Below are positions 10,436-39,036 of a stretch of 64,000 nucleotides of DNA, piece after piece. Source of the DNA: Dehalococcoidia bacterium. GTDB lineage: Bacteria; Chloroflexota; Dehalococcoidia; Lucifugimonadales; JAGWBF01. Each line of letters begins with the position of its first letter. Position 1 is the stretch's first letter. Where the stretch lies: contig OZ220675.1 of NCBI GenBank assembly GCA_965116325.1, forward strand, positions 513,457 through 577,456, read 5' to 3'. The position numbers were made by a program, and so were the translations under genes. The notes under the pieces were generated by a model that ran no database searches, had not been told where the DNA came from, and worked only from the letters and a program-made list of their open reading frames with translations.

Positions 10436-10455
10436 CCGCTGGCCTATCCGCCGGG

Positions 10456-12566: not shown

Positions 12567-12648
12567 AGTCTCTCCGGCAGGAGGTTATCCTGCGCATACA
12601 GATTCTACCCTCCCGTGCCCTGAGAAATCTCGTATCCCGACTTAGATG

Positions 12649-13836: not shown

Positions 13837-13844
13837 GAAGCCAG

Positions 13845-14491: not shown

Positions 14492-14518
14492 CCATTCCAA
14501 AAAACTTGAACTACCCTA

Positions 14519-14548
14519 AACGCCGCCCTGTATCATCACGGCGGCGTT
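14519..14548 (+). terminator. stem-loop between the IscA-like gene and the ygfZ-like gene
   Basis: AACGCCGCC (14519-14527) and GGCGGCGTT (14540-14548) form 9 perfect bp around a 12-nt loop. No clear U-tract follows, so it may be an attenuator or stabiliser rather than a terminator. Confidence 0.35.
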
Positions 14549-14578
14549 GCTGTTACAGCAAGATCCCCGGGAGATGAC

Positions 14579-15679
14579 ATGGTAGCCACCAAGTCTCCGA
14601 TCCATGATGAAGCCTCCGCTTCAGGAGCCAGCTTTGTCGAGCACCAACCTTGGCCGCTGGTCAGCAGCTTCGGAGATGGGGCAGCCGAGTACGAAGCAGC
14701 CCGCAGCTCGGCCGTCCTCTACGACTCTTCCCATATGGGCCGTCTTTCGGCGACGGGATCAGATGTCCTGGACCTCCTGAACCGCCTTTCCACCAACCTG
14801 GTGGAGCACATAGAGCCGGGCTGCGGGGTCCGCACCGTGCTGACCGATGAGCGGGGGCGCATCCTAGACCATCTGCAGATTTTCAACATGGGTACCTGGA
14901 CCCTTCTCATCGTGGGGCCCCGGAACAGGGAGCGGGTCTTGGAATGGATCGACAAGTACACCATTGTCGATGATGTAGAGATCGAGGACATCACACTCTC
15001 CACCGCTATGTTCACCATCCTGGGGCCGCAGGCCAGGGACAAGCTCTCATCACTGGCTGGGACAAAAGTCGATGGTCTGGATCTATGCCAGTGGACGGAT
15101 GCGACCATCAAGGGGATCGAGGTGCAGGTGCTCCGCACCGACAGCGCCGGGAATCCATCCTATGAGGTGATAGCGCGGGCGGAAGATGCTCCCGCCCTTT
15201 GGAGGGCCATCAAGGACGCCGGCATCGTGCCCATCGGCCACGAGGCTTTCGAAGCCCTTCGCATAGAAGGATGCGTCCCGGGGCCGGAGGCCGAGCTGGT
15301 CGACGCCTACAACCCCCTGGAGGCCGGCCTGTGGGACTCCATCAGCTTCAACAAGGGCTGCTACATAGGCCAGGAGGTTATCGCTCGCCTGGACACCTAC
15401 GGCAAGGTGCAGCGCCACCTGGTGTCCATCGGCTTTCCTGAGGGCATCCAGGTGGAGAGAGGCTCCAAGATGAGCTATGAGGGGCGGGAAGTGGGTTCCG
15501 TGACCTCCGTGGCGCAGGTGCCTGGACAGCACGGCTTACTAGCCTTGGGCTACGTCCGGAAGGAAGCTTCAACTATCGGCACCAAGCTCGCCCTTGCAAA
15601 TGACCTAAACGCCTCGGCTGAGGTACTGGCTACCACGTCAGTCCCCCAGGAAGACATAGTTGGCCAAGGCGTGAACTAG
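14579..15679 (+). CDS. folate-binding YgfZ/GcvT-family protein
   Basis: 366 aa. It has the aminomethyltransferase-like fold and the family signature KGCYIGQE (NKGCYIGQEVIARL). Confidence 0.8.
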   Translation: MVATKSPIHDEASASGASFVEHQPWPLVSSFGDGAAEYEAARSSAVLYDSSHMGRLSATGSDVLDLLNRLSTNLVEHIEPGCGVRTVLTDERGRILDHLQIFNMGTWTLLIVGPRNRERVLEWIDKYTIVDDVEIEDITLSTAMFTILGPQARDKLSSLAGTKVDGLDLCQWTDATIKGIEVQVLRTDSAGNPSYEVIARAEDAPALWRAIKDAGIVPIGHEAFEALRIEGCVPGPEAELVDAYNPLEAGLWDSISFNKGCYIGQEVIARLDTYGKVQRHLVSIGFPEGIQVERGSKMSYEGREVGSVTSVAQVPGQHGLLALGYVRKEASTIGTKLALANDLNASAEVLATTSVPQEDIVGQGVN

Positions 15680-22326: not shown

Positions 22327-25300
22327 GTGCAGATTAGGGCCGGAGTAGATTCGCCGGGGTGGCAATTTTCCTTCACGGCGGCGACCCATTTAAGGGCATC
22401 AGGGATAGTCACGTCGGGGGCGCTGTTGGTTTTCCTAGCCGCGCTATTATACGGAAGCGTTAAACCACCGCCTACGTCAGCGATACATGTCCAGACCCCC
22501 GCATTTCAGACCGCCTCCGGGGACCTCATTGACTACGACACTGATAATGACGGCCTCATCGAGGTGGCCAGCCTGACCATGCTCAACGCCATCCGCTGGG
22601 ACCTGGACGGCAACGGCGAATCGACCCACTCCGGCTACTCATCGGCTTTCCCCACACCCCAGTCGGGCATGGGCTGCCCAACCACCGGCTGCTCGGGCTA
22701 TGAGCTCACGACGGACCTGGACTTCGACACCAACGACGATGGCGTAGTCGATTCCAGCGATGACTGGTGGGACTCGGGCTCGGGATGGCTGCCCGTCGGG
22801 GACGGAAGCAGCGACACCGACTCCACCCGGTTCAATTCCACCTTCGACGGCAACGGGCACACTATATCCAACCTGCTAATCCAACGCAGTTCGTCCTTGG
22901 TTGGCCTTTTCGGTTCAGTAGGCTCATCATCTCATATCCGAGGGCTGGGCCTGACCGATGTATCTGTCTCGGGCCATTCCAGCGTGGGGGGCATTTCGGG
23001 CTACAGTGCTGGAAAGATAGAGGCCTGCTACTCCGCCGGCGCCGTAAGGGGCACAGGCAACCAGGTGGGCGGGTTGGTGGGGCACAGCGAGGGCAGCATC
23101 GTCGCTAGCTACAGCAGCACCGATGTGGTAGGGAATGGCAGAAGCAGCTCTATCGTAGGTGGCCTTGCGGGCGTAGCCAGCGCGGGAGCCGGGATCAAGG
23201 CCAGCTACTCCACAGGGAGTGTTTCGGCCTCTGGAAGGGAGAGCATCCAGGTCGGCGGGCTGGTGGGCGTCAGCCGGGTCGATGTTGTCGCTAGCTACTC
23301 AACTTCAGCAGTTTCCGCAGCGGCCTATGTTGGCGGCCTTGTCGGAGAAAAAGGCAGCGGCACGATCACCAACAGCTACTGGGATACTCAGACCTCAGGG
23401 CGTTCGGTGGGGGTCGGTTCCGACGATCTGGATTTCAACGGCACCCTCGACCCCGGGGAAACTGCGACATCGGGGGTCACCGGCAAGACGACAACGGAGA
23501 TGCGGTCCCCCACCGGCTACGCGGGCATCTACAGCGGCTGGAACATCAGCACCGACGACGACTCGACCACCGACGACCCTTGGGACTTCGGTGCGGACTA
23601 CAACTACCCTGTGTTGAGCGTGGACTTTGACGGCGATTCCGAGACCGCCGCCAACTGGCGGGACTTCGGTCTGCAGCGGGAGCCGGGCCCCGTGGGCGAA
23701 CTGGCGGAGACCCTGAACGATGATGGGACCATTAAGGTGACTTGGGAGGCGCCTACAGACCTGGGGAGCGCCAGCACGGTCACCTACCAGTACCGTTCCA
23801 GCGTCGACGGCGGCACATCCTGGGACCCGAACTGGACAGCCACTACGGAATCGAGCTACACCTTCACCCCCGATCTGAACGCGGCATACGTGGTGGAAGT
23901 CAGGACCGTCAGCGGAGCGGCGCATCCCTTGGGCAAAGCCTCCCGCTTCACGACAACTGCAGTGACCCAGCGCCCGGGCCCCACCGATGCCACGTTAGCC
24001 ATCGTGGGAGATAGCGCATCGGTCGCCGAAGGATTATCCATAGGCATAAGCGTTACGCTGAACCGGCCAGCCCCCTCAGGCGGGGCATCGGTGCGCTGGT
24101 ACGTCGCCGATGGGACGACCTCGCCAGCAGGCTCGGCCACCGGTGATCTAGCGATAACGGAATCACTGGACAGCGAAAGCAGGTACAGGGCAGCAATAGC
24201 GTCCGGCGACAGTACAGCTACCATCAACATCCCCGCCAGCGATGATGCGAGGGTAGAACCAGACACCGAGCACGTGCTCTTCATTGTGGACAAGGTGGTG
24301 ATCGGCGAGGATGAGACCAAGAGCTTCAACCCCTCCAGCAACTCCGTAGAGTTCGGCATAAACGATACAGACACAATCAACCTGGCAATATCCGCCCAGG
24401 CCCAGGTACGGGAGGGGACAACCGGGGGCCCGGAGCCCGGATCATCGCAGATCACGGTCACCGCGACCGCCAACCCCGCAGCTACGCTGGACCGCAGCGT
24501 GCAAGTCCGGGTGGTGAGCGACGGAGGCACGGCCACGACGGGGACCGACTACACCGCCATCGACGAAACGGTTACCTTCAACTCCGGCACAGTCGTCGGC
24601 ATCGGCACGGGGGACAGCCCATCAGCGAGCGTCACGACTACAAATCCTCTCAGGCCACTAGCAGATTCTGTCACCGAGTCAGATGAGACCGTAGTCCTGA
24701 AGCTAGCCTCTCTCAGCACTGCTGAGCGGGCCTACGACTTAGGGACCACTCCTCCGTCCACAACTGTCACCATTCTCGACGACGACGACGACGCCAGAGT
24801 GATTTCTTCCTTCTCAATAGACAACACCAATCCCATGCCCGAGGACGGCGGTTCCCGCACTTTCACGGTAATCCTGAAGGAGGCAGCTAACTCGGCCCTT
24901 CGCATACCCGTCAAAGTGACACTGGATGGAGGAAGCACTGCCGGCAAGCTCGCCCTGTCCTGCATCCAGGAACAAGAGGCGTGCGTAAACATCGCCACCG
25001 GCGACACCTCCGGTACCCTGGTCATTTCCTCCACGGGCGATGACCTAGTAACCGGCACCCAGCCGGTAAAGGCCACGCTGAAGCCCCCTGCCGAAGTATC
25101 TCTCAAGGACGGAGTTAGTGCGACCATCAGTGTGGACCGCTTGGACGACGACCACCTAACTGCCACTTTGGCTCGCTCGTCCTACTCAGTCGATGAAGGG
25201 AATAGCATCCAGGTCACTGTAGAGGTTACGGCCCAGGACAAAAATCTGGCTCGCGTAGCTTCGCTGCAGCTCCAGACCTCAGCCAGCAACCCTGAGTCTG

Positions 25301-28300
25301 CGGGCACGGGCGACTACACAGCCCTGGACCGCACCATTCAGCTTCAGACCGGCGACTACACCACTTCCGGAATGTCGTTCAATGTTTCCATCAATACAAA
25401 TGAGGACGATCTGGCGGAAATAGATGAAGCTTTTGAAGTTACCTTGCGCACCGGAGACAGCTTGGTGAGGCTATCGGGGCAGACCACCTCCGCCACGATC
25501 ACGATACTCGACGATGACAGGGCTACCTCAGTCAGCGGGCTTACCAGTAATACAGGAAGCCTGGATGAAGACGCCGAGGAGACTGCCACCATCACGATCG
25601 CCCTGGACGGCGACGCAGTGTCGGCAGCAACTTTCGGCTGGGTTGTGAGCGGACAGGGGATCGACACAGGCGACTTCACCCTGGCCGCTGGGACCGACAC
25701 CACACTGACTACAACCGGCGACGGGTTGCGCGGGACCGTCACTGTGGGTGCTGGAAGAAGCTCGGGTCTTCTAACAATCGACGCGATGGACGATTCAGCA
25801 GACCCTACACCGGAGTCCGAGACTCTGACCTTCACCCTCAGCAGTGTTCCAAACGGACTGGGTGTCCCGGACAACACATCGGTAAGCGTCTCTATCACCG
25901 ACAACGATCCGATAGCTATCTCCGGCAGCGCATCGCTGTCCCTACGGCATGGAGATCCTCAACGTGACGAACCCTCCTCCGTTGTATCGGAGGGGGACGT
26001 GGTACGGGCTCGGGTGTCCCTGAGCGAACGCCTGCCGGTGGACGTCCAGGTGCCTCTTACCCTGCCCGATGGCAACGACATCACGGGCGACCTTGCCGGC
26101 AAAACCCAGACTACGCCAATCGTTGTTATTGCTTCCGGAGATACTACCGGAACGGTCTCATTCCTGGCACAACTCGACCAAGTGGACGAAAACGACGAGA
26201 CGCTCACCATAGGCTTAGGCACTCCAACATACGACACCACAAGGCCGGTGTCCGGCAGCCTCGCAATCGAAGGAACGGGTGACCTGCAAATCAACGATGT
26301 GCTGGTGTCATTTCAGACTCGAAACGTGACAGCTGGGGGTGGGAGGCAGAAGCTGCGCACCATGACCATCGATACAGGTCGCAACCTCGCCAATGGGGAC
26401 GATAACGAGGTGGAGGTAACATTCATCGTTTCAAGCGGCGATTATGAAGTAGCCTGGCGCATACAAGGGCAGGCCGCCGACTTAACAGACAAACTTAGCA
26501 TGGACGGGACGCGGACGATAACCCTGACCACTGGGGACATATCCAGCAGGACGATACTCCTGGACCTGTACGTGACCCCCCAGCCTGGCGCCTCAGACCC
26601 CTTCGAGCCAGCCATTTCCATCACCAGCGTTAGGATCCATGAAGGCCAACGCTCAAAGGAGTTGGTCCCTACAGCAGTAGCCCCGAACCGGGCCCCCGGC
26701 ACCCCTTGGCTTTCAGCGCAAACGGCAACGGAGGACCAGCTCTTCACCTATCAGTTCGCCGAGGTCGTCGATCCCGATGGCGACATGGTCACATACACAG
26801 CCAGCTCAGGCGACATGAACAGCTTGCCAATCTGGCTGACCTTCGACACCGCCTCGCGGACCTTTTCCGGTACACCACTGGAAGCAGACACACCTGCCAG
26901 CCATACCATACGCGTTACGGTGCGGGACGCCTCCCTTTCGACATTCGCCACCTTTGCACTAAGCGTGCTAGAGGTGAACGATCCACCAAGCGCCCTTTCC
27001 CTGACTGACCAGTTCGCTGAAGCGGGCGAGATGTTCAGCTACACCTTTCCAGCCATGAGTGACCCAGAGGGAAGTGCGGTCACCTATTCGGCTGAGCTGG
27101 AAGACGGCAGCTCCCTTCCAACCTGGCTGACCTTCAACGCGTCAAGCCGTACATTCAGCGGCACTCCTGGGGAGTCCGACTCGGGCACACTGACCATCAA
27201 GGTTACAGCCAGCGACGGGGCTATGCCCACGCCGGGGTTGTCCAGCTCCACTTTCATGCTGACAGTGGGGACTCTTATTGACTATGACACCGATGATGAC
27301 GGCCTCATCGAGGTGGCCAGCCTTTCCATGCTGAGCGCTGTCCGATGGGACCTGGACGGCGACGGCGCCTCAGCAAACTCGGACTACTTGTCGGCTTTCC
27401 CCACACCCCAATCGGGCATGGGCTGTCCCGTGACCGGCTGTTCGGGGTACGAGCTGACCACAGACCTGGACTTCGACACCAACAAAGATGGGACCATCGG
27501 CTCCGGAGATGACTGGTGGGACTCGGGCTCCGGCTGGCTGCCTATCGGGGACGGAAGCAGCGACAGCGATGCAACCCGGTTCAACGCCACCTTCAACGGC
27601 AACGGCCACACCATATCCAACCTGTTCATCCAGCGTACCATCCCCCTGGTCGGGCTCTTCGGTTCCACCGGCTCCTTGGCCGACATACACAACCTCGCCT
27701 TGAAGGATGTCAATGTGAGCGGCCAGACCGGTGTTGGGGGACTCGTGGGCGAAAACCAGGGAAAGGTGTCCATTACGTACACCACGGGCCGGGTGTCCGC
27801 CTCCAGGAGCTATGCCGGGGGGCTGGTGGGCTGGAACAACGGAGGCAGCATCGCGGGGAGCTACTCCTCTTCCACCATGTCCGGCGACACCCAGGTAGGC
27901 GGGCTGGTCGGGCTACATGGCAGCGGCTCTATGGTCGCCTGCTATTCCACCGGAAGCGTTTCCAGCGCCGGGGGACAGGCTGGTGGGCTGGTCGGAGAGA
28001 ACCGGAGCAGCATCACCGCCTGCTACTCCACCGGCGCCGTTGCCGGCCCTGTCCTCGTAGGCGGCCTCATCGGGACCGACCAAGCCGGCACTATTTCCAA
28101 CAGCTATTGGAACGAGGAGACTTCGGGAATCAGTGTCGGCGTAGGTTCCGACGACACTGACGGCAGTGGGACCGTAGAGGCCACAGAACCGGCGACCTCA
28201 GGGGTGACGGGAAGAACGGATGCCTCGCTGCGGGCGCCTACAGCCTATGCCGGCCTGTACAGCGGCTGGAACGTCAGCATCGACGAAGATGCGGTCGCCG

Positions 28301-31300
28301 ATGGACCCTGGGATTTCGGCGCTCCCTATAACTACCCGGTGCTGAAAATGGACTTCGACGGTGACCCAGATACAACCCCAAGCTGGCAGGAGTTTGGAAG
28401 GCAACGGGAACCGGGGCCGGTGAGCAGCCTTTCTGCTTCCCTGGGGGAGTCGGGGAACATTGAGACGGCATGGAGCGAACCCGGCGACACGGGAAGCGGG
28501 ACCCTGGGCAGCTATCGGTACCGTGTGAGCTACGACGGTGCAAAGACCTGGGGAGCCTGGACCGAAACAGAGTCCAAGTCCTACACCATCGCTGTGGCGG
28601 ATAGCACGGCACACTCCTTTGAGGTGCGGGCCACCAGCGATGCTGTCCATCGACTGGGGGCAGCCTCTTTCCTGGGCCCGCCAGGTCCGCCGGTTAACCT
28701 CTCGCTGGCTCCCCGCGACATGCATCTGGTCGCCGCGTGGGACCCTCCAGAGGAGGACGGCGGCGCTGCAGTAACGGGCTACGTCTTGCAGTACCGCCAG
28801 GGTGATTCGGGAGCCTGGACGGAGATGACACTAACTGGGGACGCCAGCACACTGGACATCGGCTCCCTGGCAAACGACCAGGCATACCAGGTGAGGATTG
28901 GCGCCGAGAACATATTCGGCATTGGCGCCTTCTCTCCTGCGGAGACCGCCTCCGCCATAAACTCGCCTCCCCCCACATCGCCGGTGCAGAATCAAACTGC
29001 GACCGAGCTCCAGTCCTTCAGCTACTCCATTGACGATGTAACCGACCCTGACGGGCATCAAGTCAGCTATTCAGCCTCTCTCGATGATGGGACGCCTCTA
29101 CCGGCTTGGCTCGACTTCGACGAGGCTAACCGGACATTCAGCGGGACCCCTGAAGATGCCGATACGGGCAGCTTGGCTATAAGGATTACAGCTACCGACG
29201 ACGGTACTCCTCCAGCCTCTTCCGAGGTATCTTTCACCCTTACCGTTGAGGATGTAAATCAGGCCCCCGCTGCACTCTCTGTCGAAGACCAGAGAGCAGG
29301 GGCAGGCCTGTTCTTCAGCTACACGATTACCGAGACCACCGACCCGGACAGCCGCGACACCCTCAGCTATTCTGCAGCCCTTGCCGACGGCACCGACTTG
29401 CCTATCTGGCTGGGCTTCGAGATCAACACTCTAGTTTTCAGCGGCACAGCCACATCGGGAGATGCCGGCACGTTCAACATAGTGGTGAAAGCCATCGATG
29501 ACGGCACTCCACCGATGTCATCGGAGGCCGCCTTTACCCTGGAGGTCATATACAACTCCCCGCCCTCGGCGCCAGCCCTTTCGGACCAGACCGCAACCGA
29601 AGGTGAGGAGTACGTTTACACCTTTCCGGCATCCACCGATGAGGACAACCACAGCATCAGCTACTCCGCTCTCCAGTCCGACGGCTCCCCCCTGCCCGGC
29701 TGGCTGACATTCGACGGTGTGGAGCGCACCTTCCGAGGAACGCCCTTGGAGCTGGATTCGCCCAAGAGACACCGGATCAAGGTGAAGGCAATGGACGACG
29801 GCTGGCCGGATGCATCTTCAGAACGGGAATTTGAACTGTGGGTCCCCGAAGTGGATTCACCGCCGATAGCCGTCGCAACTGCCAAACTATGCCCACCGTC
29901 CGCTCAGACGTGGGATGACAATTCAGATGAACTATTGGTCCCCGAACCGGACTCGCCGCCGATTGCTGGCGTCATAGATCAGCTATGCCCCCCGTCCGTG
30001 CAGACGGGGGATGAAAATTCAGACCCGCTGCGGGTTAACCCGAAAGATATAGTGATCCTGGACGGCACCGGGAGCCATGATCCGGAGGGCGGGACGATAA
30101 GCTATCGGTGGACCCAGACCGACGGCCCGCCGGTCGAGCTGTTTCACCCAGAACCTACAGATCCGTGGAAATCTAGAGAAGCCTGGTTCATTGCTCGCAC
30201 ACAGGGCACTTTCGTATTCAAGCTGGAAGTAAGGGAAGTCGACGGCAAGACCTATACAAGCACCTCTGAGGCGGTCGTCATCGTAGTCGAACCAATCCCG
30301 CCAGGACCCCTTCCCATCACCTTCGATTCCGATACAACGCCGGATCAGAACTATGTGGTAGGCCGGGATGTCGGGATGGTACAGCTGCCAATTGCAACCG
30401 GAGGGACGGGCGACCTCACATACCAGCTTTCGCCTGCCTTGCCTCGAGGGCTGGCCTTTGACCCAGTTGCGCGCACCATAACCGGCACTCCTACGGAACT
30501 TCTGGAGCGAAGGCTCTTCACTTACACAGTCATTGACCAGGTCGGCAGCGAGGCGTCCCTGCACTTCTACGTGACAGTCAGTGCGCCAATCGCCGTGGCG
30601 AAAATCGATGCCCGGGGCGCCGTCACTATCATCGCCAAGGCTGCAGGGGAGTCCGATCTCACATTTGCGATAGAAGAAGAAACCCTGCATATAAGGGTGA
30701 AGGTGGACGGGAATAGCATAGGTTCTCGACTAACGCTACTAGCTGGCCCGGACTGGTCCAACCTTGCTCTAATCGAGTTCTCCAGCATACCAGCCGGCGA
30801 CCTGATCAACCCTGCCGCTCCTCCAGGTTTCCGCAGGCTTGGAGAACTGAGGTTTCTGAACATCACCCTGCGTGACCGCGATGGCCTAACCATAGACCGG
30901 TTGGACGCCCCGGCAACCATCTGCCTTGCACCTAGAACCGGCGACGGGGAGCTGATCATGCTCCGATATGACGGCGCCGAGAGTTGGTCAATCCTTGCCA
31001 ATGCTGTGGTGACGTCGCTGAATGGGGAGACCTTCATGTGTGCCGACAGCGCCAGGCTATCGACCTTCGCCGCTGGATATGCTGTGCCTCTGCCGCCGCC
31101 CTCCCCGAATCCGACACCTACTCCTGTTGGCAGTCAGAGTGACGATGGGGCTCCCAGTCCCACGCCCACACCTGCACCCACGGCGATACCCGTACTGACC
31201 CCTACTCCAACTCCGTCGGTTCCTGTGGAGCAGGTGGAGGCAACACCGATCCCCTCCCCGAATCCCACTCCTCCGGGGTCTACAGAATCTGTAGAACAGG

Positions 31301-31626
31301 CGGAGCCAACACCGACTCGTCCCATAGATCCAACTCCTACGACCCCAGCAGATCCTGCAGACCAGATGGATTCAACCTCGGCGCATCCACCAAGTCCGAC
31401 TCCCCCGAGTCTCACAGAATCCCCAACTCCGAGATCCACCACCGATCTCCTTCAGGAGCAAACTCCGCCTCCCATCGCGCCCACTACCCCGCCGACGCCT
31501 TTCCAGGTGGGGCACCTTGAGGATCCGAGGGGTGGCAATCGCGTCTGGACCCTGGTCGGGGTACCATTAGCCATAGCGTTGCTGGGGATGATCTTCTTGA
31601 TATACCGGCGCAGCCTGAGACCGTAG
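22327..31626 (+). CDS. giant (3,099 aa) modular cell-surface protein with GLUG-repeat beta-helix-like modules, FN3, Calx-beta-like, cadherin-like (He_PIG/dystroglycan-type) and PKD-like domains, a PT-rich stalk and a C-terminal TM anchor
   Basis: A single uninterrupted ORF. It has an N-terminal signal-anchor (IVTSGALLVFLAALLYGSV) and GNGHTISNL plus VGGLVG (GLUG) repeats. Calx-beta-like endings (TGTDYTAIDETVTF, ESDETVVLKL, EIDEAFEVTL) and He_PIG-like units (LP.WLTFD...RTFSGTP) are present. The C-terminus reads VWTLVGVPLAIALLGMIFLIYRRSLRP. Confidence 0.9.
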   Translation: MQIRAGVDSPGWQFSFTAATHLRASGIVTSGALLVFLAALLYGSVKPPPTSAIHVQTPAFQTASGDLIDYDTDNDGLIEVASLTMLNAIRWDLDGNGESTHSGYSSAFPTPQSGMGCPTTGCSGYELTTDLDFDTNDDGVVDSSDDWWDSGSGWLPVGDGSSDTDSTRFNSTFDGNGHTISNLLIQRSSSLVGLFGSVGSSSHIRGLGLTDVSVSGHSSVGGISGYSAGKIEACYSAGAVRGTGNQVGGLVGHSEGSIVASYSSTDVVGNGRSSSIVGGLAGVASAGAGIKASYSTGSVSASGRESIQVGGLVGVSRVDVVASYSTSAVSAAAYVGGLVGEKGSGTITNSYWDTQTSGRSVGVGSDDLDFNGTLDPGETATSGVTGKTTTEMRSPTGYAGIYSGWNISTDDDSTTDDPWDFGADYNYPVLSVDFDGDSETAANWRDFGLQREPGPVGELAETLNDDGTIKVTWEAPTDLGSASTVTYQYRSSVDGGTSWDPNWTATTESSYTFTPDLNAAYVVEVRTVSGAAHPLGKASRFTTTAVTQRPGPTDATLAIVGDSASVAEGLSIGISVTLNRPAPSGGASVRWYVADGTTSPAGSATGDLAITESLDSESRYRAAIASGDSTATINIPASDDARVEPDTEHVLFIVDKVVIGEDETKSFNPSSNSVEFGINDTDTINLAISAQAQVREGTTGGPEPGSSQITVTATANPAATLDRSVQVRVVSDGGTATTGTDYTAIDETVTFNSGTVVGIGTGDSPSASVTTTNPLRPLADSVTESDETVVLKLASLSTAERAYDLGTTPPSTTVTILDDDDDARVISSFSIDNTNPMPEDGGSRTFTVILKEAANSALRIPVKVTLDGGSTAGKLALSCIQEQEACVNIATGDTSGTLVISSTGDDLVTGTQPVKATLKPPAEVSLKDGVSATISVDRLDDDHLTATLARSSYSVDEGNSIQVTVEVTAQDKNLARVASLQLQTSASNPESAGTGDYTALDRTIQLQTGDYTTSGMSFNVSINTNEDDLAEIDEAFEVTLRTGDSLVRLSGQTTSATITILDDDRATSVSGLTSNTGSLDEDAEETATITIALDGDAVSAATFGWVVSGQGIDTGDFTLAAGTDTTLTTTGDGLRGTVTVGAGRSSGLLTIDAMDDSADPTPESETLTFTLSSVPNGLGVPDNTSVSVSITDNDPIAISGSASLSLRHGDPQRDEPSSVVSEGDVVRARVSLSERLPVDVQVPLTLPDGNDITGDLAGKTQTTPIVVIASGDTTGTVSFLAQLDQVDENDETLTIGLGTPTYDTTRPVSGSLAIEGTGDLQINDVLVSFQTRNVTAGGGRQKLRTMTIDTGRNLANGDDNEVEVTFIVSSGDYEVAWRIQGQAADLTDKLSMDGTRTITLTTGDISSRTILLDLYVTPQPGASDPFEPAISITSVRIHEGQRSKELVPTAVAPNRAPGTPWLSAQTATEDQLFTYQFAEVVDPDGDMVTYTASSGDMNSLPIWLTFDTASRTFSGTPLEADTPASHTIRVTVRDASLSTFATFALSVLEVNDPPSALSLTDQFAEAGEMFSYTFPAMSDPEGSAVTYSAELEDGSSLPTWLTFNASSRTFSGTPGESDSGTLTIKVTASDGAMPTPGLSSSTFMLTVGTLIDYDTDDDGLIEVASLSMLSAVRWDLDGDGASANSDYLSAFPTPQSGMGCPVTGCSGYELTTDLDFDTNKDGTIGSGDDWWDSGSGWLPIGDGSSDSDATRFNATFNGNGHTISNLFIQRTIPLVGLFGSTGSLADIHNLALKDVNVSGQTGVGGLVGENQGKVSITYTTGRVSASRSYAGGLVGWNNGGSIAGSYSSSTMSGDTQVGGLVGLHGSGSMVACYSTGSVSSAGGQAGGLVGENRSSITACYSTGAVAGPVLVGGLIGTDQAGTISNSYWNEETSGISVGVGSDDTDGSGTVEATEPATSGVTGRTDASLRAPTAYAGLYSGWNVSIDEDAVADGPWDFGAPYNYPVLKMDFDGDPDTTPSWQEFGRQREPGPVSSLSASLGESGNIETAWSEPGDTGSGTLGSYRYRVSYDGAKTWGAWTETESKSYTIAVADSTAHSFEVRATSDAVHRLGAASFLGPPGPPVNLSLAPRDMHLVAAWDPPEEDGGAAVTGYVLQYRQGDSGAWTEMTLTGDASTLDIGSLANDQAYQVRIGAENIFGIGAFSPAETASAINSPPPTSPVQNQTATELQSFSYSIDDVTDPDGHQVSYSASLDDGTPLPAWLDFDEANRTFSGTPEDADTGSLAIRITATDDGTPPASSEVSFTLTVEDVNQAPAALSVEDQRAGAGLFFSYTITETTDPDSRDTLSYSAALADGTDLPIWLGFEINTLVFSGTATSGDAGTFNIVVKAIDDGTPPMSSEAAFTLEVIYNSPPSAPALSDQTATEGEEYVYTFPASTDEDNHSISYSALQSDGSPLPGWLTFDGVERTFRGTPLELDSPKRHRIKVKAMDDGWPDASSEREFELWVPEVDSPPIAVATAKLCPPSAQTWDDNSDELLVPEPDSPPIAGVIDQLCPPSVQTGDENSDPLRVNPKDIVILDGTGSHDPEGGTISYRWTQTDGPPVELFHPEPTDPWKSREAWFIARTQGTFVFKLEVREVDGKTYTSTSEAVVIVVEPIPPGPLPITFDSDTTPDQNYVVGRDVGMVQLPIATGGTGDLTYQLSPALPRGLAFDPVARTITGTPTELLERRLFTYTVIDQVGSEASLHFYVTVSAPIAVAKIDARGAVTIIAKAAGESDLTFAIEEETLHIRVKVDGNSIGSRLTLLAGPDWSNLALIEFSSIPAGDLINPAAPPGFRRLGELRFLNITLRDRDGLTIDRLDAPATICLAPRTGDGELIMLRYDGAESWSILANAVVTSLNGETFMCADSARLSTFAAGYAVPLPPPSPNPTPTPVGSQSDDGAPSPTPTPAPTAIPVLTPTPTPSVPVEQVEATPIPSPNPTPPGSTESVEQAEPTPTRPIDPTPTTPADPADQMDSTSAHPPSPTPPSLTESPTPRSTTDLLQEQTPPPIAPTTPPTPFQVGHLEDPRGGNRVWTLVGVPLAIALLGMIFLIYRRSLRP
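22525..23691 (+). repeat. copy 1 of a ~1.15-kb intragenic duplication (Ca-binding-like DxDxDG loops plus GLUG module)
   Basis: Protein segment LIDYDTDNDGLIEVASL...DGNGHTISNL...GLQREPGP. Long runs of nucleotide identity with copy 2 are seen in the first ~350 nt. Confidence 0.9.
27274..28419 (+). repeat. copy 2 of the intragenic duplication
   Basis: Protein segment LIDYDTDDDGLIEVASL...NGNGHTISNL...GRQREPGP, lying 4,749 nt downstream of copy 1 in the same frame. Confidence 0.9.
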
Positions 31627-32315: not shown

Positions 32316-33566
32316 ATGATACTCAATCCCATTAAGGGCATACCTGGTCTCTTGAGCGCCAGCCTCATGGCCATAGGCCTACTCTTTGCCACCGCGGCAT
32401 GCGCTGGCGGCGACCCCACCTCTACGCCAACTACGGCTCCAGACCCAACCCCAACATCGACGGCCACTCCCATACCCCCAACGCCACTGAACGTGGTCAC
32501 CACAACCAACATAGTGGCGCACTGGGTGGAGAACATCGGCGGCGATCATGTTAACGTGTTCAGCCTGCTGCCCATTGGCGCCGACCCCCACGCTTTCCAG
32601 CCCGGCGCCCAGGATGTTACCAAGATTGCTGATGCAGACCTTGTACTCTCAATAGGGCTGGGACTCGAGGAAGGCTGGATGACGAGCCTTCTGCAGAGCG
32701 CCGCCCGGGACCCCTCCAGCATCACTGAGCTGGGCGAGCTCATCGACCCCATCGAATTCGCCGAGGGGCACATCGAAGAGGTCGAGTTTCTTGAGCATGT
32801 CGGCGAGGTCATTCACGAGGTGGAAGACGGCGACATGACCGCCGAGGATGCCCTCGCGGAGATCAAGATGATCCTCGCAGAAGTAGAGATCCACGAGGAC
32901 GAGGAAGACGAACCTCCGGCGATGACCCTGGATATCCTTGCCCAGATTGACAGCGGCGAGCTGGACATCGGAGAGGGGCTTGAGGAGATCGAACACATAA
33001 TCGGTGGCGGCCATGAAGAGCACGAGGGCCACGGACACGGGACCGAGGACCCCCACTTCTGGTTTGACCCGATACGAGTCAAGGTAGCCGTAGATGAGAT
33101 TGTCGCCTTGCTCTCAAACCTGGATCCCGACCTGGCGAACACCTACGAGGCGAACGCCTCCGCTTTCAAGTCTGACCTTGACGAGTTGCACACTTGGACC
33201 GAAGAGCAGGTCAGCGCAGTGCCAGAGGAGAACAGGCTGCTGGTCACTTCCCACGACAGCCTCGGCTACTTCGCAAATCTTTATCACTTCGAGGTAGTGG
33301 GCGTGATCCTGTCCACCACCACCGAGGCCGAGCCATCGGCCGAGGACCTGGCGGAACTGGTCCACGAAATCGAAGAGACCGGCGCCAAGGCCGTGTTCGG
33401 CGAGACCACCGTCAGCGAGCGCCTCGCCATCGCAGTAGCCACCGAGTCCGGTGTCGAGCTGTACAGGCTATACTCCGGCTCCCTCGGAATCGACGGCAGC
33501 GGAGCGGAGACCTACATTACGATGGTGCAGACCAACGTTAACCGGATAGTCGAAGCCCTGCGATAA
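32316..33566 (+). CDS. znuA: metal ABC transporter substrate-binding lipoprotein, ZnuA/TroA family, with a His/Asp/Glu-rich loop
   Basis: It has a signal peptide plus lipobox (LLFATAAC) and a PT linker. The acidic His-rich loop (HEDEEDEPP...GGGHEEHEGHGHGTEDPH) is characteristic of Zn-specific ZnuA. Blocks DPHFWFDP and LVTSHDSLGYF are present. Confidence 0.85.
   Translation: MILNPIKGIPGLLSASLMAIGLLFATAACAGGDPTSTPTTAPDPTPTSTATPIPPTPLNVVTTTNIVAHWVENIGGDHVNVFSLLPIGADPHAFQPGAQDVTKIADADLVLSIGLGLEEGWMTSLLQSAARDPSSITELGELIDPIEFAEGHIEEVEFLEHVGEVIHEVEDGDMTAEDALAEIKMILAEVEIHEDEEDEPPAMTLDILAQIDSGELDIGEGLEEIEHIIGGGHEEHEGHGHGTEDPHFWFDPIRVKVAVDEIVALLSNLDPDLANTYEANASAFKSDLDELHTWTEEQVSAVPEENRLLVTSHDSLGYFANLYHFEVVGVILSTTTEAEPSAEDLAELVHEIEETGAKAVFGETTVSERLAIAVATESGVELYRLYSGSLGIDGSGAETYITMVQTNVNRIVEALR
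32317..32331 (+). promoter_or_regulatory. candidate Zur operator, copy 3: TGATACTCAATCCCA (overlaps the znuA start codon)
   Basis: This is the second copy of the 19-nt repeat (32316-32334), with 18 of 19 positions identical to copy 2. Confidence 0.3.
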
Positions 33567-33581
33567 CGCAGGAAGCGATCT

Positions 33582-33622
33582 ACCGGAAGTGGGCCGCCCA
33601 ATGCAGGCGGCCCACTTCCGGT
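33582..33622 (+). promoter_or_regulatory. perfect 17-bp stem-loop between znuA and znuC
   Basis: ACCGGAAGTGGGCCGCC (33582-33598) pairs perfectly with GGCGGCCCACTTCCGGT (33606-33622) around the 7-nt loop CAATGCA. No U-tract follows. Confidence 0.6.
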
Positions 33623-33656
33623 GACAATTCATAACCATTTCAGGGGAAGCGCCAAG

Positions 33657-34412
33657 ATGGCAACCGATGCGGCTATAGCAGTCAGGGATGTGACCGTCGT
33701 GCGTGGCGGACACACCGCCCTCACCGATGTGACTTTCGATGTAAGCCAGGGCACCCTCATGGGAGTGCTGGGCCCCAACGGAGCGGGGAAAAGCACTCTA
33801 TTTGACGCCATCGCCGGCGTGCTGCCCCTGGCCCGGGGCTCGGTGGACCTTTATGGCGACGCGTCCCGCGCAGGGGCCTTGGCCTACGTCCCCCAGCGGG
33901 ACAGCATCAACTGGCGCTTTCCCGCCAATGTACATGACGTGGTGATGATGGGTTGCTGCCGCACTGGGTGGTCCAGGCAGACCGTCAAAAAGCACCGCGA
34001 GCTGGTCAAGCTCTGCCTGTGCCGGGTTGGCTTGTGGGAGCAGCGCTCAGCACGTATTACCGAGCTTTCTGGAGGCCAGCGTCAAAGGGTCTTCATCGCC
34101 CGCGCCCTGGCCCAGGAGGCGAGCGTGGTCTTGCTGGATGAGGCTTTCAGCGGCGTTGATGTTGGAGCGCAGGAAGGCATCATAGAGGTGCTACAGTCCC
34201 TCCGCGACGAGGGAATAATCGTGCTACTGGCTACCCACGATCTCACCAACCTGGCACAACGGTTCGACCAGGTGCTGTGCATAAACCATCATGTGTGTGC
34301 CTGCGGCCCCCCCGACCAAGCCTTCACCCCCGCCGTGCTGGAGGAGCTGTACGGCTCCCACGGCTTTGAGTTCTCCCACAACCACTACAGCCCTGACAGG
34401 CGCGGACCGTGA
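33657..34412 (+). CDS. znuC: metal ABC transporter ATP-binding protein
   Basis: ATG 33657 gives MATDAAIAVRDV. Walker A is GPNGAGKST, the signature is LSGGQRQRV and Walker B is VVLLDEA. Confidence 0.88.
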   Translation: MATDAAIAVRDVTVVRGGHTALTDVTFDVSQGTLMGVLGPNGAGKSTLFDAIAGVLPLARGSVDLYGDASRAGALAYVPQRDSINWRFPANVHDVVMMGCCRTGWSRQTVKKHRELVKLCLCRVGLWEQRSARITELSGGQRQRVFIARALAQEASVVLLDEAFSGVDVGAQEGIIEVLQSLRDEGIIVLLATHDLTNLAQRFDQVLCINHHVCACGPPDQAFTPAVLEELYGSHGFEFSHNHYSPDRRGP

Positions 34413-35242
34413 TCGACTACATAGTCGGCCCCTTTCAGTACACCTTCATGGTCAGGGCGCTGATCGTCTCCGTGTTGGTCGGCGTTATGTGCCCGGTGCT
34501 TGGGGCATACGTCATTACCCGGGGGCGCGCATTCATGGGGGATGCCCTGGCCCACTCGGTGCTTCCCGGCATGGTGGTTGCCTTCCTTCTGGGAATCAGC
34601 CCCTTCATCGCCGCCGTTCCGGCGGGCATAGCCATCGCCCTGTTGATGGGCAGCATCGCTCGGCGCACTGGGGTAAGCGAAGACACATCCATAGGCATCA
34701 TCTTTGCGGGCATGTTTGCCCTGGGCCTCGTGATGCTCTCCAAGGCCTCGAACATCACCGTTAACATCGAAGACCTGCTCCTTGGGCAGGTGCTGGGCGT
34801 TTCCCGGAACGACGTTTACACATCCCTGGGCCTGACCATTCTGGTGCTGATAGGCCTGTTCATCTTTCACCGTCAGCTGATATACACCACCTTCGACCCC
34901 GTGGGCGCCAAGGTGGTGGGGATACGAACGGGGCTCATCGAGTACGTGCTCCTAGCACTGCTGGCCTTGGTCATAGTCATAGGCATTCAGGCCGCGGGTA
35001 TCGTTCTTGTAATGGCCATGCTCATCACACCTGCCGCGACTGCCTACCTTCTGGTCCGGCGCTTCGTGGAGGTCATGGTATTGGGGGCTTTCCTGGGAGG
35101 GGTCTCAGCAGTGACCGGGCTGTACCTTTCATTCCACGTGGACCTGCCCTCAGGCCCGGCCATGGCCCTGGTCGCTACCGTAATGTTTGGAGTGGCCGCC
35201 TTGGCGAAGCAGCAGTGGAGGGTCAAAGAGGCAACAGCTTAA
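34409..35242 (+). CDS. znuB: metal ABC transporter permease (ABC-3 family)
   Basis: 277 aa with 8-9 TM helices. It overlaps znuC by 4 nt (GTGA). ABC-3-type blocks such as AFMGDALAHSVLPG are present. Confidence 0.88.
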   Translation: MIDYIVGPFQYTFMVRALIVSVLVGVMCPVLGAYVITRGRAFMGDALAHSVLPGMVVAFLLGISPFIAAVPAGIAIALLMGSIARRTGVSEDTSIGIIFAGMFALGLVMLSKASNITVNIEDLLLGQVLGVSRNDVYTSLGLTILVLIGLFIFHRQLIYTTFDPVGAKVVGIRTGLIEYVLLALLALVIVIGIQAAGIVLVMAMLITPAATAYLLVRRFVEVMVLGAFLGGVSAVTGLYLSFHVDLPSGPAMALVATVMFGVAALAKQQWRVKEATA

Positions 35243-36237: not shown

Positions 36238-36399
36238 CGCGCCGCCAGCTGCTGCCGAGCATCTTCGACTTCACTGGAGATGTCTCTGTCTCCGCATACT
36301 ATGGGGGCCGGGACATCGGTCACCACCCAGTGAGGTCGAAGCCGGGACCAAGGAACAGGCCCGGAGGCATGCAGCCACCCAGCCCGCTTTAGCTAAAGA

Positions 36400-37497
36400 C
36401 TAGCTGTTTTCTTCTTTCTTGAAGGGTGCTCTCAGAATAACTCGAACGCCACCGATTGTGCCGGATACAGCATTGGTTACCGCCGTTGCCGTAGCCTCCC
36501 CGAAGGACCCGGCCGCGCTGACAGCCCCATTGGCCGTAGCCGAGGCGGCATCCTCAGCGCGAACACCGATCCGCTTCGCATTCTCTATGGCCGATTCCAC
36601 CGCGTTGCGCGCCACATTTGCCACATCGCCGCCGACCTCTGCTGTGCCTTTCACAAGACCTCTGGCGCTGTCTTCGAGGGCTCCTATGACATTGCCTCCC
36701 ACCTGCTGGGTACCCGTCACAGTTCCACTGATGGTGTCCCTGGCGGTGGCTCCCAAGTCTCCTCCAACGTCCCTGGCGCCATGAACGGCGCCCCTGGCTG
36801 CGCTGAATGCCACATCCTGCAGCTTGACGGCAACGCTTCCTGTAGCCTCGATCGCACCCTCCACTGCACCTCGGGTCACCAAAGCCACATCACCTCCCAC
36901 TTCGGAAGCCCCACTGACCAACCCCCGGGCGCTGTCTTCGACAGCCTCGATGACGCTGCCTCCAACCTCCTGGGTGCCGGTGATAGTTCCCTTGATCGTA
37001 TCCTTTGCGGCGGAGGCCAGGTCTCCTCCCACTTCCCTTGTGCCTTGAATGGCTCCCTGGGCTACGCTGAAAGCCATATCCTCAGCCCGCAGCCCCAGGC
37101 TCTTGGTCGTTTCCATGGCGCCTTCGGCGGCGCTCCGGGCCACGGTGGCAACATCGCCGCCCACCTCACCGGTGCCCTTTATGGCGGCCCGCACAGTATC
37201 CCTGAGCACGCCCACTGTGACAGTGCTCACTTCGCCGGCGCCGCGAATTATCCCTATGACGCTCCCCTTAACTGTGGACGCCAACTCGGTACCGACTTCG
37301 TTGGTTGCCTGGATGGCGCCTTTGATCACATCTCCAACCAGCTCTTCTATGCTTGTTATCGTGTCCCGAGAGCTGCGAAGGGCGTTAGTTGTGGCATTGC
37401 GCGCAGCATCAATGGTGCTTTCGACCACGCTGCCTGCTCCACTGATGGTACCCGCTATAGAGTCCCTGATACCTCTTCCTATATTTCCCAAGGTCAT
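36400..37497 (-). CDS. repeat protein of unknown function (Ala/Gly/Val/Thr/Glu-rich; 22-aa x-G-T-x-E-V-G-G-D units nested in ~88-aa super-repeats)
   Basis: 365 aa with its own RBS (AAGGAG) and promoter-like element. There is no signal peptide, TM segment, Cys, Trp or Tyr. The G(T/A)xEVGGD core occurs 7 times plus 2 degenerate copies. Confidence 0.75.
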   Translation of the reverse strand: MTLGNIGRGIRDSIAGTISGAGSVVESTIDAARNATTNALRSSRDTITSIEELVGDVIKGAIQATNEVGTELASTVKGSVIGIIRGAGEVSTVTVGVLRDTVRAAIKGTGEVGGDVATVARSAAEGAMETTKSLGLRAEDMAFSVAQGAIQGTREVGGDLASAAKDTIKGTITGTQEVGGSVIEAVEDSARGLVSGASEVGGDVALVTRGAVEGAIEATGSVAVKLQDVAFSAARGAVHGARDVGGDLGATARDTISGTVTGTQQVGGNVIGALEDSARGLVKGTAEVGGDVANVARNAVESAIENAKRIGVRAEDAASATANGAVSAAGSFGEATATAVTNAVSGTIGGVRVILRAPFKKEENS

Positions 37498-37602
37498 CTG
37501 CGCATCTCCTTATCGTTATGGGCCCGATGGTGCAGTTATGTAAAGCGCCTATATGTGCAAATCCACTGCAGTCAGAATGTGGGCATCGAAAGCCTGGATA
37601 CG

Positions 37603-37632
37603 ATTATAGGTCGCCCAAACTTGGATTGTCCA
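37603..37632 (-). promoter_or_regulatory. promoter-like TGGACA-N18-TATAAT upstream of the repeat-protein gene
   Basis: On the minus strand, TGGACA lies at 37632-37627 and a consensus TATAAT at 37608-37603, about 100 nt upstream of ATG 37497. Confidence 0.4.
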
Positions 37633-37668
37633 TCGACTCGGGGAACAGTGGACGGTCACATGGACCGA

Positions 37669-39036
37669 CTAGAGAGAAGCGAGGAGCTTCAGCTCATCGG
37701 CCATAAGACGGGGGGTCAGGTAGTGGCTGCGGATGTACCGGTGACCCCAAGCCCCCATCGACTTGGCTTGGTCGGGATTCTCCAGCAAATGAAGCACCTT
37801 GTCGGCGCACTCTTCGATGCTGTCAACGAGGTAGCCGCCTTTGCTGTCCTTAAGCTGCATGGGGATTCCGCCGACCCTGCCACCCACCACTGCCGTGAAC
37901 TTCCACTGGGCTTCCGCGACTACCAAGCCGAACCCTTCCCGGATGGACTTCTGGATAACGACGTCCGACGAGCGCTGGAAGGCGTTAACCTCGATGCTGC
38001 TGGCGGCGGTGAAGTTTGTGTACATGTGCACGTCGGGGTCACTGCCAGCTGCCCTTCTGGTCGCTTCGTACATCTCCGCGCCCTGGGGGTCATCCATGGC
38101 CAGGTGGCCCAGCATAGCCAGCTGGACCTCTGGGATCTTCCGCTTCACCCGGCGGTACACTTCCACAACTCCCAGCGGGTCCTTCCAGGGATCGAAGCGG
38201 GACACCTGGGTCACCAGGGGCCTGCGGGTGTCGATGCCCGCAAAGGAGAGGATGTTCTCACACAGGCCGGGGGGAAGATAGGTGTTCTTGGGGGTTGTGG
38301 GGTCTATGGCCGGCGGGATCAGGCGAACCTTCTCCGACGGCAGGTCCTTCATGGCGTAGTCGGCCATGGTGAAGACCACGGCATCGTAGGCATCCACATA
38401 GGGACGCAGGAAACGCCACACCTGGAGATTTGGCTCGGACACGTCGATGTGACACCGCCATACCCACTTGGCCTTGGTTGAGCCATGCATGGAGCGAATG
38501 GCTGCCGGCTGGGGGTCGTGCACGATGATGTAGTCGTAGTCGTCGTAGGAGAAGGCTGTGTTGCGGGAGTTGGTGTCCAGGTAGGCCCGCTTCCCGGCGC
38601 CGGTCAGATGGTAATCGCCTCCCTGAAGGGCGTTGTGGAAAGCCTTGGTGACGCGAAAGAAGGGGTCGTCCCCTGCGATGGTCATCCAATCGGCATGGAT
38701 GCCTATGTCCCGCATCAGGGGGATGTAAGAGCGGAGGATTTCCGCAACCCCGCCTCCGTAGGCGGTGGAGTTGAGGTGCAGCACCTTGGCGCCCACCAGC
38801 GGGGCTGCCAATCTCCTGACCTCCTCCAGGGCCTTCCTGCCAACGGGTTTTCGGTAGGCCTCCAGGGAGGCATTGCCAACGGACACTTCTTGCAGCGGGC
38901 CTGTGTACCTCTCTGCCAATGGGGCTGATCTCGCAAGGCGCTCATGGCCGTTTCGTCCGGCCCCCGCCCCATTGCGGTTGGTGCTTTCAATCTTATTTGC
39001 CGTCAGCGTCCGTTGCGCCAATTCTCCCCCCATCAC
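37669..39036 (-). CDS. treT: trehalose synthase, TreT-type (GT4 trehalose glycosyltransferring synthase)
   Basis: 455 aa. It has the conserved TreT-family blocks as I recall them: HLNSTAYGGGVAEIL, FFRVTKAFHNALQG, VHDPQPAA, WRCHIDVSEPN, VTQVSRFDPWKD and EVNAFQRSSDVVIQKSIREGFGLVVAEAQWK. The N-terminal ~50 aa are an extension, so the start is uncertain. Confidence 0.85.
   Translation of the reverse strand: MMGGELAQRTLTANKIESTNRNGAGAGRNGHERLARSAPLAERYTGPLQEVSVGNASLEAYRKPVGRKALEEVRRLAAPLVGAKVLHLNSTAYGGGVAEILRSYIPLMRDIGIHADWMTIAGDDPFFRVTKAFHNALQGGDYHLTGAGKRAYLDTNSRNTAFSYDDYDYIIVHDPQPAAIRSMHGSTKAKWVWRCHIDVSEPNLQVWRFLRPYVDAYDAVVFTMADYAMKDLPSEKVRLIPPAIDPTTPKNTYLPPGLCENILSFAGIDTRRPLVTQVSRFDPWKDPLGVVEVYRRVKRKIPEVQLAMLGHLAMDDPQGAEMYEATRRAAGSDPDVHMYTNFTAASSIEVNAFQRSSDVVIQKSIREGFGLVVAEAQWKFTAVVGGRVGGIPMQLKDSKGGYLVDSIEECADKVLHLLENPDQAKSMGAWGHRYIRSHYLTPRLMADELKLLASL

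Follow-up and report, generated by a model that had tools for sequence, protein, structure and literature searches.

A 22-residue helical-repeat protein family encoded beside, and fused to, YihY/BrkB membrane proteins

Some membrane transporters are regulated from the cytoplasm by RCK/TrkA or CBS modules, which are domains or separate subunits and so occur either fused to the membrane protein or encoded beside it. A soluble module with the same two arrangements is described here from a stretch of 64,000 nucleotides (nt), called the window, in the genome of a Dehalococcoidia bacterium (contig OZ220675.1, positions 513,457 to 577,456). It is a 365-amino-acid (aa) repeat protein, REP for short (gene and domain alike; L-numbers denote loci and P-numbers protein clusters), whose gene lies upstream of one encoding an inner-membrane protein of the YihY/BrkB family. 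Like the RCK/TrkA and CBS modules, REP serves several transporter families, YihY and P2A-type ATPases, and joins signaling domains. It differs from them in that its fold is unrelated, it has no recognizable ligand site, it varies in length by whole modules, and its regulatory role is putative. We read REP as a helical-repeat adaptor, and what is new is its unit, its family, and its partners. We favor the view that it is a soluble protein which scaffolds or regulates membrane transport proteins (YihY in this lineage) and works in osmotic or ionic homeostasis, and judge the chances of that view to be about even.

REP also shares traits with other described proteins. LEA_4 (group 3 of the late embryogenesis abundant, or LEA, proteins), perilipin 4, alpha-synuclein, and apolipophorin-III have the same 11/3 periodicity, repeat lengths that are multiples of 11, and a non-polar face of small and beta-branched residues with few aromatics. 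However, the helices of REP end every 22 residues at a conserved Gly-Gly turn and are predicted to pack compactly, and REP is not hydrophilic, has no membership in those families by hidden Markov model (HMM), and is found fused to membrane and signaling domains. Phasins and CsmC are, like REP, small, all-helical, Ala-rich bacterial proteins, and they give the best Pfam scores, yet these are sub-threshold (14-17 bits for Phasin_2); no polyhydroxyalkanoate or chlorosome genes were seen in the REP neighborhoods inspected. In predicted structure, the likeness is to designed helical repeat (DHR) proteins: DHR4 (5cwb) and O43_dn18 (6vfi) are two-layer alpha/alpha solenoids with short loops, as REP is predicted to be. 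Since DHR proteins are artificial and only 12-19% identical to REP, this is analogy, not descent. REP differs from them in having exactly 22 residues per helix and turn, a core of small residues (Gly, Ala, Val), a terminal beta-hairpin, and a manner of growth in 88-aa steps.

Repeat anatomy and predicted fold

Set in rows of 22 residues, REP keeps its register from end to end with zero indels (features are located in Table 1). Autocorrelation of BLOSUM scores, measured against 200 shuffles, is strongest at lag 88 (z = 19.3, 42% identity), followed by lags 44 (z = 13.8), 176 (z = 12.9), and 22 (z = 12.4). The hydrophobicity spectrum contains a single sharp peak at 98 degrees, or 3.67 residues per turn (11/3; z = 49.5), which recurs in six distant relatives, and because of this period the unit can be read as two hendecads. 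Gly is kept at unit positions 3, 4, 16, and 20, and position 5 is occupied by D, S, or N, residues that classically cap the N-termini of helices. Each unit would consist of an amphipathic helix of 18-19 residues closed by a tight turn, (E)-V-G-G-(D/S/N), in which the Gly pair forms the bend and the D, S, or N caps the next helix. Two units would make a helical hairpin and four (88 aa) the module by which the family lengthens.

That lengthening is quantized. Across loci, the open reading frames (ORFs) encoding REP are about 191, 275-279, 364-373, or 453 aa long, and in alignment the longer forms exceed the base form by exactly one, two, or three 88-aa modules, set into its middle part. The window REP is the form with two, so that it would be the base form of ~190 aa carrying two extra modules in mid-protein. 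Block A is common to the base form, block B is missing from the 191-aa and 279-aa forms, and block D is the conserved core, where 53 homologs align nearly without gaps and share invariant and near-invariant columns (motifs EVGGDVAxVARxAVExAIExAK, xIGxxAEDAASAxAxGAxxAAG, and ...SGTIGGV). Between blocks B and C, identity is 62% at the protein level and 67% at the DNA level. Tandem Repeats Finder detected no tandem repeat in the DNA at REP, which together with the 67% identity indicates that the duplication is old rather than an artifact of slippage. The C-terminal tail is kept as GV(K/R)VV(L/V)(K/R)(E/A)PF(K/R) in stand-alone and receiver-fused members and is not present in the REP-YihY fusion sequences P0031, P0052, and P0028.

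Much of this anatomy had been anticipated by a first-pass annotation, made from the letters of the DNA without database searches. It described a 365-aa ORF free of Cys, Trp, Tyr, and transmembrane segments, as is the case: the protein has 0 Cys, 0 Trp, and 0 Tyr (A 16.4%, G 15.3%, V 12.1%), and no transmembrane-like stretch, the Kyte-Doolittle 19-residue mean peaking at 1.49. The computed pI is 4.9, the grand average of hydropathy (GRAVY) is +0.12, and the charge is net acidic, with 43 acidic residues to 33 basic. The 22-aa units and the super-repeat of about 88 aa that it proposed agree with the autocorrelation peaks, its 2.5 copies from residue 105 correspond to residues 111-198, 199-286, and 287-352, and its amphipathic-helix periodicity holds. 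It could assign no family, and neither could the searches of Pfam, NCBIfam, and PDB described below. The strong ribosome-binding site that it reported is genuine (AAGGAG). Also, the promoter that it credited to the gene, TGGACA-N18-TATAAT, exists and is the sole match in the 4.4 kb scanned; but 1.4 such matches are expected by chance, and the candidate is suggestive only, through its position.

Structures were predicted with AlphaFold2 for the window REP (alignment of 47 sequences) and for P0069, a canonical member of 200 aa (88 sequences). In the window model, residues 230-350 form one helix per unit with a predicted local distance difference test (pLDDT) of 91-97, the helices running for 17-19 residues and the turns, of 3-4 residues, falling at the VGG motif; block C contains helices 203-219, 226-243, 248-266, and 270-287, and in block D pLDDT reaches 95-97. 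P0069 is modeled with a pLDDT of 91.7 and a predicted TM-score (pTM) of 0.87 as eight helices, after which GVKVVLKEPF makes a small beta-hairpin at the C-terminus (strands 178-180 and 183-185). A Foldseek search of PDB matched designed helical repeat proteins (5cwb, 7mwr_B, and 6vfi) at TM-scores of 0.65-0.70, with a root-mean-square deviation of 3.0-3.2 Å over ~185 residues, while the best natural proteins reached only ~0.2. Comparison of the family profile with PDB sequences likewise found designed repeats only (5cwg, E 4.6e-6; 5cwd, E 1.9e-5), and the single REP sequence found nothing but a phage tape-measure protein at E 0.74. The predicted model has the stacked helix-loop-helix-loop arrangement of the DHR-like alpha/alpha solenoid class. 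Apart from the models, each unit type shows position-specific conservation in different phyla and the family alignments are nearly gapless, which independently argues for a specific tertiary fold. REP is thus predicted to be a folded, cytoplasmic alpha/alpha solenoid. A predicted fold matched by designed repeat proteins only, and growing by exact four-helix modules, is relevant both to protein design and to the evolution of repeats.

An unnamed family and its YihY/BrkB partner

A word-indexed search returned 61 homologs of REP, and an HMM scan of 1.84 billion representatives returned 1451, 724, and 119 clusters at E <= 1e-3, 1e-10, and 1e-30, so that the family comprises at least 1451 clusters at 50% identity. 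The majority of its members measure 180-200 aa. Among GTDB species representatives, 70 REP loci were found, about half of them in Dehalococcoidia and the others in Acidobacteriota, Gemmatimonadota, Rokubacteria, "delta proteobacterium" (Desulfobacterota-like) genomes, candidate phyla radiation bacteria, Actinomycetota, and others. The scan used a 12-sequence alignment and two patterns that favor close relatives; the locus sample is therefore enriched in Dehalococcoidia, and the spread over phyla is a lower bound. All 70 loci come from metagenome-assembled genomes (MAGs) or other assemblies of uncultured organisms and none from cultured isolates, although patterns so narrow may have missed isolates. 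That distribution may explain why the family has gone unnamed.

By sequence comparison, the family is large, unnamed, and not a member of any named family tested. No natural relative or covering model was found in Pfam, NCBIfam, or PDB (88 members were checked against Pfam). At E <= 1, Pfam gave REP itself only MitMem_reg and Phasin_2, both under the cut-off, and the 88 members gave scattered single sub-threshold matches to Phasin_2, CsmC, Senescence, Perilipin, and Synuclein. For the phasins (PF09361 and PF05597), Phasin_2 reaches 14.0 bits where 24.9 are required, and only 2 of the 88 members match at E <= 0.01. CsmC (PF11098) scores at best 23.8 bits against 26.3, in P0069 alone. Apolipophorin-III (1eq1) gives E 0.21 with the family profile and is not among the top Foldseek matches, and HMM scores together with hydropathy rule out perilipin and synuclein. 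LEA_4 (PF02987) matches neither REP, at E <= 1, nor any of the 88 members. Hydrophilins have a GRAVY well below 0; besides the value for REP given above, six relatives range from 0.006 to 0.154. The 11-residue amphipathic periodicity of LEA proteins is present in REP (period 3.67). LEA proteins are also disordered in solution and fold on drying; for P0069 and for window residues 230-350, AlphaFold2 predicts a compact fold.

These comparisons bear on the idea that REP is an abundant, stress-protective binder of lipid surfaces or membranes, in the manner of LEA group 3 proteins, apolipophorin-III, perilipin, or phasins, acting alongside trehalose made by the TreT enzyme encoded upstream. Under dehydration or osmotic stress, its amphipathic 11/3 helices, whose core consists of small residues, would open out onto membranes. 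The exact 11/3 periodicity along the whole protein suits such a binder, as does a hydrophobic face composed of V, I, A, T, and G, in which aromatics are almost lacking: the corresponding face of perilipin 4 is of the same residue type and nearly free of aromatics (PMC5889406, PMC8064757). It is also the case that the sub-threshold HMM matches of the family members point solely to lipid-surface families, that the association with trehalose genes recurs, and that the strong ribosome-binding site, the promoter-like site, and the hairpins found in relatives (see below) suggest high, independent expression. However, REP is not hydrophilic, its net acidic charge is unfavorable for anionic bacterial membranes, LEA_4 gives no match, and the lipid-family matches are all under threshold and confined to 1-2 of 88 members. 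The position-specific conservation of unit types in a gapless alignment and the compact solenoid predicted for P0069 speak for a specific tertiary fold. Finally, surface binding leaves the fusion of REP to the N-terminus of YihY and to receiver domains unexplained. We regard it as a rather unlikely account of the protein.

The fusions, together with conserved adjacency, are the strongest evidence that the conserved partner of REP in the window lineage is YihY/BrkB, a gene that the first-pass annotation overlooked. The product of the gene downstream of REP scores 209.4 bits with PF03631 (E 9.5e-62), for which the cut-off is 33.7, and 146 bits with TIGR00765, for which it is 73.15. Of the 70 genome loci, 23 have a YihY gene directly downstream of REP and on its strand, as do the window and L001; the gaps are mostly 42-433 nt, and REP identity across those loci is 45-85%. 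In at least 13 clusters, one of them with 130 member sequences, the two are a single polypeptide (P0028, P0030, P0031, P0032, P0036, P0039, P0045, P0052, P0053, P0056, P0134, P0154, and P0185), the clean fusions being 560-580 aa long. Some other apparent fusions, P0001 (L001, 1175-2434), P0044, and P0086, were called as run-ons of REP with YihY or with a P-type ATPase by way of an apparent frameshift or low coverage (e.g., a contig at 3x), and these are probably artifacts of assembly or gene calling.

The favored view, of REP as a scaffold or regulator of transport proteins, would work as follows. In the window lineage, REP would act together with the YihY/BrkB protein encoded 162 nt downstream; elsewhere the REP domain forms the cytoplasmic N-terminal part of YihY itself. 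REP would dock on membrane transport proteins, YihY here and P2A-type ATPases in other lineages, probably through the conserved C-terminal GV(K/R)VVL(K/R)xPFK tail. That the tail, or else one face of the solenoid, does the docking is something we infer from its retention in stand-alone forms and its loss in fusions. Fusion to receiver or STAS-like domains could place REP under signal control. YihY/BrkB (PF03631) is a widespread inner-membrane family without a mechanism, and a dedicated soluble partner gives testable leads to one.

The spacer between the two genes has a minimum free energy of -83.5 kcal/mol (z = -3.0), and in six related loci (L023, L024, L026, L030, L037, and L041) it contains a terminator-like hairpin and T-run. 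Its primary sequence is not conserved among relatives, and a scan of the whole window gave no Rfam match. The structured spacer may attenuate read-through into yihY. Given also the promoter-like site and the strong ribosome-binding site, REP is perhaps made in large excess over YihY, and these signs of independent, high expression may leave open a role as an abundant protein.

Neighboring genes and a possible osmotic role

The gene upstream of REP in the window encodes a TreT-type trehalose synthase, as the first-pass annotation had said. Its product matches PF21269 (E 6.9e-55), PF00534 (E 1.5e-19), and, over residues 48-454, PDB 2x6q (E 2.4e-116). With the NCBIfam model NF041139 it scores 427 bits, below the equivalog cut-off of 775, so its substrate specificity is putative. 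The link of REP to TreT that the annotation suggested is weak. TreT precedes REP only in the window and, among the 23 genome loci with REP-YihY, in L013 alone (OZ244824.1). L013 is sister to the window and fully syntenic with it (the shared gene order is CtaB, CtaA, an epimerase, TreT, REP, YihY, and ZnuBCA, with aa identities of 75-90%), and the TreT-REP adjacency therefore counts as a single lineage.

Other trehalose genes are found beside REP elsewhere. In L047 (241-7709), from a Vicinamibacterales MAG (Acidobacteriota), glgX, treY (TIGR02401, 951 bits), a 293-aa REP, and YihY run in one direction, the last apparently split between ORFs at 6455-6862 and 6972-7709. This is an independent recurrence of the trehalose-REP-YihY triad with a different trehalose pathway. 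Also, a 303-aa paralog of REP fused to a receiver domain has glgE on one side and treS-mak on the other, with malQ and/or glgB coming next, in every locus where flanking sequence is available (L005, L007/8, L011, L025, and L042; the association extends to the short contigs L006, L009, and L010). These paralogs occupy GlgE-pathway operons of the Dehalococcoidia type.

One might suppose from such arrangements that REP is a scaffold for enzymes of trehalose and alpha-glucan metabolism (TreT, TreY, TreS-Mak/GlgE), possibly held at the membrane by YihY, with the YihY link secondary. TreT or TreY stands immediately upstream of REP in two unrelated phyla, the receiver-fused paralog keeps its place between glgE and treS-mak, and an open-ended solenoid is a typical protein-binding scaffold. 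However, 21 of the 23 genome loci with REP-YihY lack any trehalose gene within 10 kb (the queries were TreT, TreY, GlgX, GlgE, TreS-Mak, GlgB, and MalQ; OtsA/B were not queried), a P2A-type ATPase is paired with REP instead in 11 genome loci, and most family members are without carbohydrate-related neighbors. An enzyme scaffold is, in our judgment, improbable.

Besides those 11 genome loci, L083 has a P2A-type ATPase beside REP. The REPs next to these Ca-ATPase-like pumps are short, about 220-250 aa, and the pumps bear an N-terminal HMA_2-like extension. In "delta proteobacterium" MAGs, a MetK-like gene comes after the pair, and then genes for a YtaF/MntP-like membrane protein, an OmpR-type regulator, and a DedA/UptA-like protein. 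Genes for channels of the MscS/MscK type adjoin REP in L039 (1378-2782, a Dehalococcoidia MAG) and L051 (8086-10243, a Binatia MAG), and the fusion P0028 is flanked by a K+ channel, CorA, CNNM, MgtE, and Asp23. The remaining fusions examined stand in unremarkable contexts.

With neighbors such as P2A pumps, CorA, MgtE, CNNM, a YbaL/Kef-like K+ efflux protein, and ZnuABC, REP might be a cytoplasmic buffer or sensor of divalent cations, its acidic E-x-G-G-D loops binding Ca2+ or Mg2+; in the window REP, 7 of its 16 units do start with acidic residues on either side of the Gly-Gly turn. Against this, unit position 5 varies among D, S, and N, which fits a helix N-cap rather than a conserved metal ligand, no similarity to metal-binding families is seen, and the structural role of the turn accounts fully for the motif. 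Cation binding strikes us as very improbable.

Judged by co-location, the neighbors of REP (trehalose genes from three pathways, namely TreT, TreY, and GlgE/TreS, besides MscS, cation pumps, and K+/Mg2+ transporters) suggest that its setting is osmotic or ionic homeostasis. The trehalose and osmotic module proposed in the first-pass annotation fares unevenly in this light: its link to TreT shrinks to one lineage, but the glgX-treY locus L047, the paralog between glgE and treS-mak, and the MscS genes of L039 and L051 independently support the wider idea of a module for trehalose or osmotic stress. The LEA-like or phasin-like character that it suggested for REP finds no support, in view of the positive GRAVY, the missing LEA_4 match, the low Phasin_2 score (14 against 24.9 bits), and the compact predicted fold. 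REP offers a lead on osmotic adaptation and is not read here as a desiccation protein of the LEA type.

A more specific proposal is that REP and YihY/BrkB make up a previously unrecognized two-part device for osmoadaptation, in which YihY is a conduit for a trehalose-like compatible solute or for ions, gated by a REP solenoid of adjustable length. The solenoid would sense the state of the cytoplasm, be it ionic strength, crowding, or a phospho-signal arriving through fused receiver or STAS domains. If true, this would give the widespread YihY/BrkB family its first mechanistic function and explain why the pair is placed repeatedly beside TreT, TreY, GlgE/TreS, MscS, and cation pumps. We consider it unlikely, though worth stating.

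Several observations weigh against the broader view of REP as a scaffold or regulator of transport proteins. In the window model, residues 72-117, which fall mostly in block A, have a pLDDT <50, and the pTM is 0.56; also, AlphaFold2 may be over-confident on idealized repeats. An excess of REP over YihY would be less typical of a stoichiometric subunit. L029, with a 365-aa REP from Dehalococcoidia, has a gene for a CCG-domain protein downstream and no YihY, and about 30 of the 70 genome loci have none of the tested partners, their contexts being heterogeneous (GT87, DUF748, a histidine kinase, and PAP2). The neighborhoods of REP-YihY fusions are variable, and trehalose genes are mostly missing from them. 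Full-text searches of the literature on YihY/BrkB turned up annotation-level mentions only, with no mechanism and no trehalose link. Lastly, physical contact between REP and YihY is something that we infer from gene fusion and adjacency, and this counts on the same side.

Table 1. Location of REP, its parts, and its neighbors, in window coordinates unless a locus is named
Feature	Position	Strand	Remarks
REP	36400..37497	-	ATG start, 365 aa; 16 units of 22 aa and a 13-aa tail; ORF listing
REP stop codon	36400-36402	-	
Block A, residues 23-110	37168..37431	-	four degenerate N-terminal 22-aa units; row display, alignment with 191-453-aa forms
Block B, residues 111-198	36904..37167	-	first inserted 88-aa module, 4 helix-turn units
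Block C, residues 199-286	36640..36903	-	second 88-aa module
Block D, residues 287-365	36403..36639	-	conserved C-terminal core of the family; super-repeat part 287-352
Tail motif G-V-R-V-I-L-R-A-P-F-K-K, residues 350-361	36415..36450	-	C-terminal
Shine-Dalgarno AAGGAG	37506..37511	-	8 nt ahead of the ATG at 37497; read off the sequence
Promoter candidate TGGACA-N18-TATAAT	37632..37603	-	sigma-70-like; upstream of REP; 11 of 12 positions match
REP-YihY spacer	36238..36399	-	162 nt, G+C-rich, strongly structured as RNA
YihY/BrkB inner-membrane protein, 314 aa	35293..36237	-	downstream of REP, co-directional; PF03631, TIGR00765
TreT-type trehalose glycosyltransferring synthase	37669..39036	-	upstream of REP, co-directional; PF21269, 2x6q
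REP-receiver paralog	L005 8001-8912; L007 2230-3141; L011 8001-8912; L025 9440-10651; L042 2086-2997		
REP-P2A loci	L048, L049, L053, L054, L056, L063, L064, L075, L081 (about 10400-15400 in most); L073; L076; L083 4047-7747		
KaiC-like gene and P0002	L002/L003 6476-9329; L004 3134-5987		

Signaling fusions and other genes of the loci

Clusters P0002-P0021 are fusions of REP with a receiver domain, and P0023 is a fusion with a SpoIIAA-like domain. Aligned with E. coli CheY, the receivers of the REP paralogs retain D57 and K109 but have N or S in place of D13 and S in place of T87. The full acidic pocket of canonical response regulators (D12, D13, and D57) is thus incomplete, and the domains are atypical or pseudo-receivers. 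No DNA-binding domain was found in the REP-receiver paralogs, and the name that NCBI gives those of the GlgE operons, "response regulator transcription factor," appears to be wrong. P0002 (442 aa), in which an atypical receiver precedes REP, begins 2 nt past the stop codon of a gene for a KaiC-like double ATPase, which suggests translational coupling to a KaiC-type system.

Beside the fusion P0052, in L089 (9836-12384), are genes for an inositol-1-phosphate synthase, a CDP-alcohol phosphatidyltransferase, and a GT4 glycosyltransferase, with two Band_7 genes near. The products of these three genes could serve to make compatible solutes based on inositol, or else glycolipids of the phosphatidylinositol kind.

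On the plus strand of the window, a 566-aa ORF (36781-38481) lies antisense to both REP and TreT. It is spurious, an artifact of a G+C-rich antisense frame. ORFs of this sort misled length-greedy ORF calling in related loci: clustering of neighbors by that means chose antisense ORFs over REP (clusters 2 and 7), and targeted tblastn was used instead.

Farther off, also on the plus strand, a 3099-aa ORF (22327-31626) with He_PIG (putative Ig), Calx-beta, GLUG, and PKD domains probably encodes a large protein of the surface or adhesin type. Convergent with yihY is a metal ABC importer of the ZnuA/ZnuC/ZnuB type (32316-35242, plus strand), the ZnuA of which carries a long acidic, His-rich insert (…HEDEEDE…GGGHEEHEGHGHG…).

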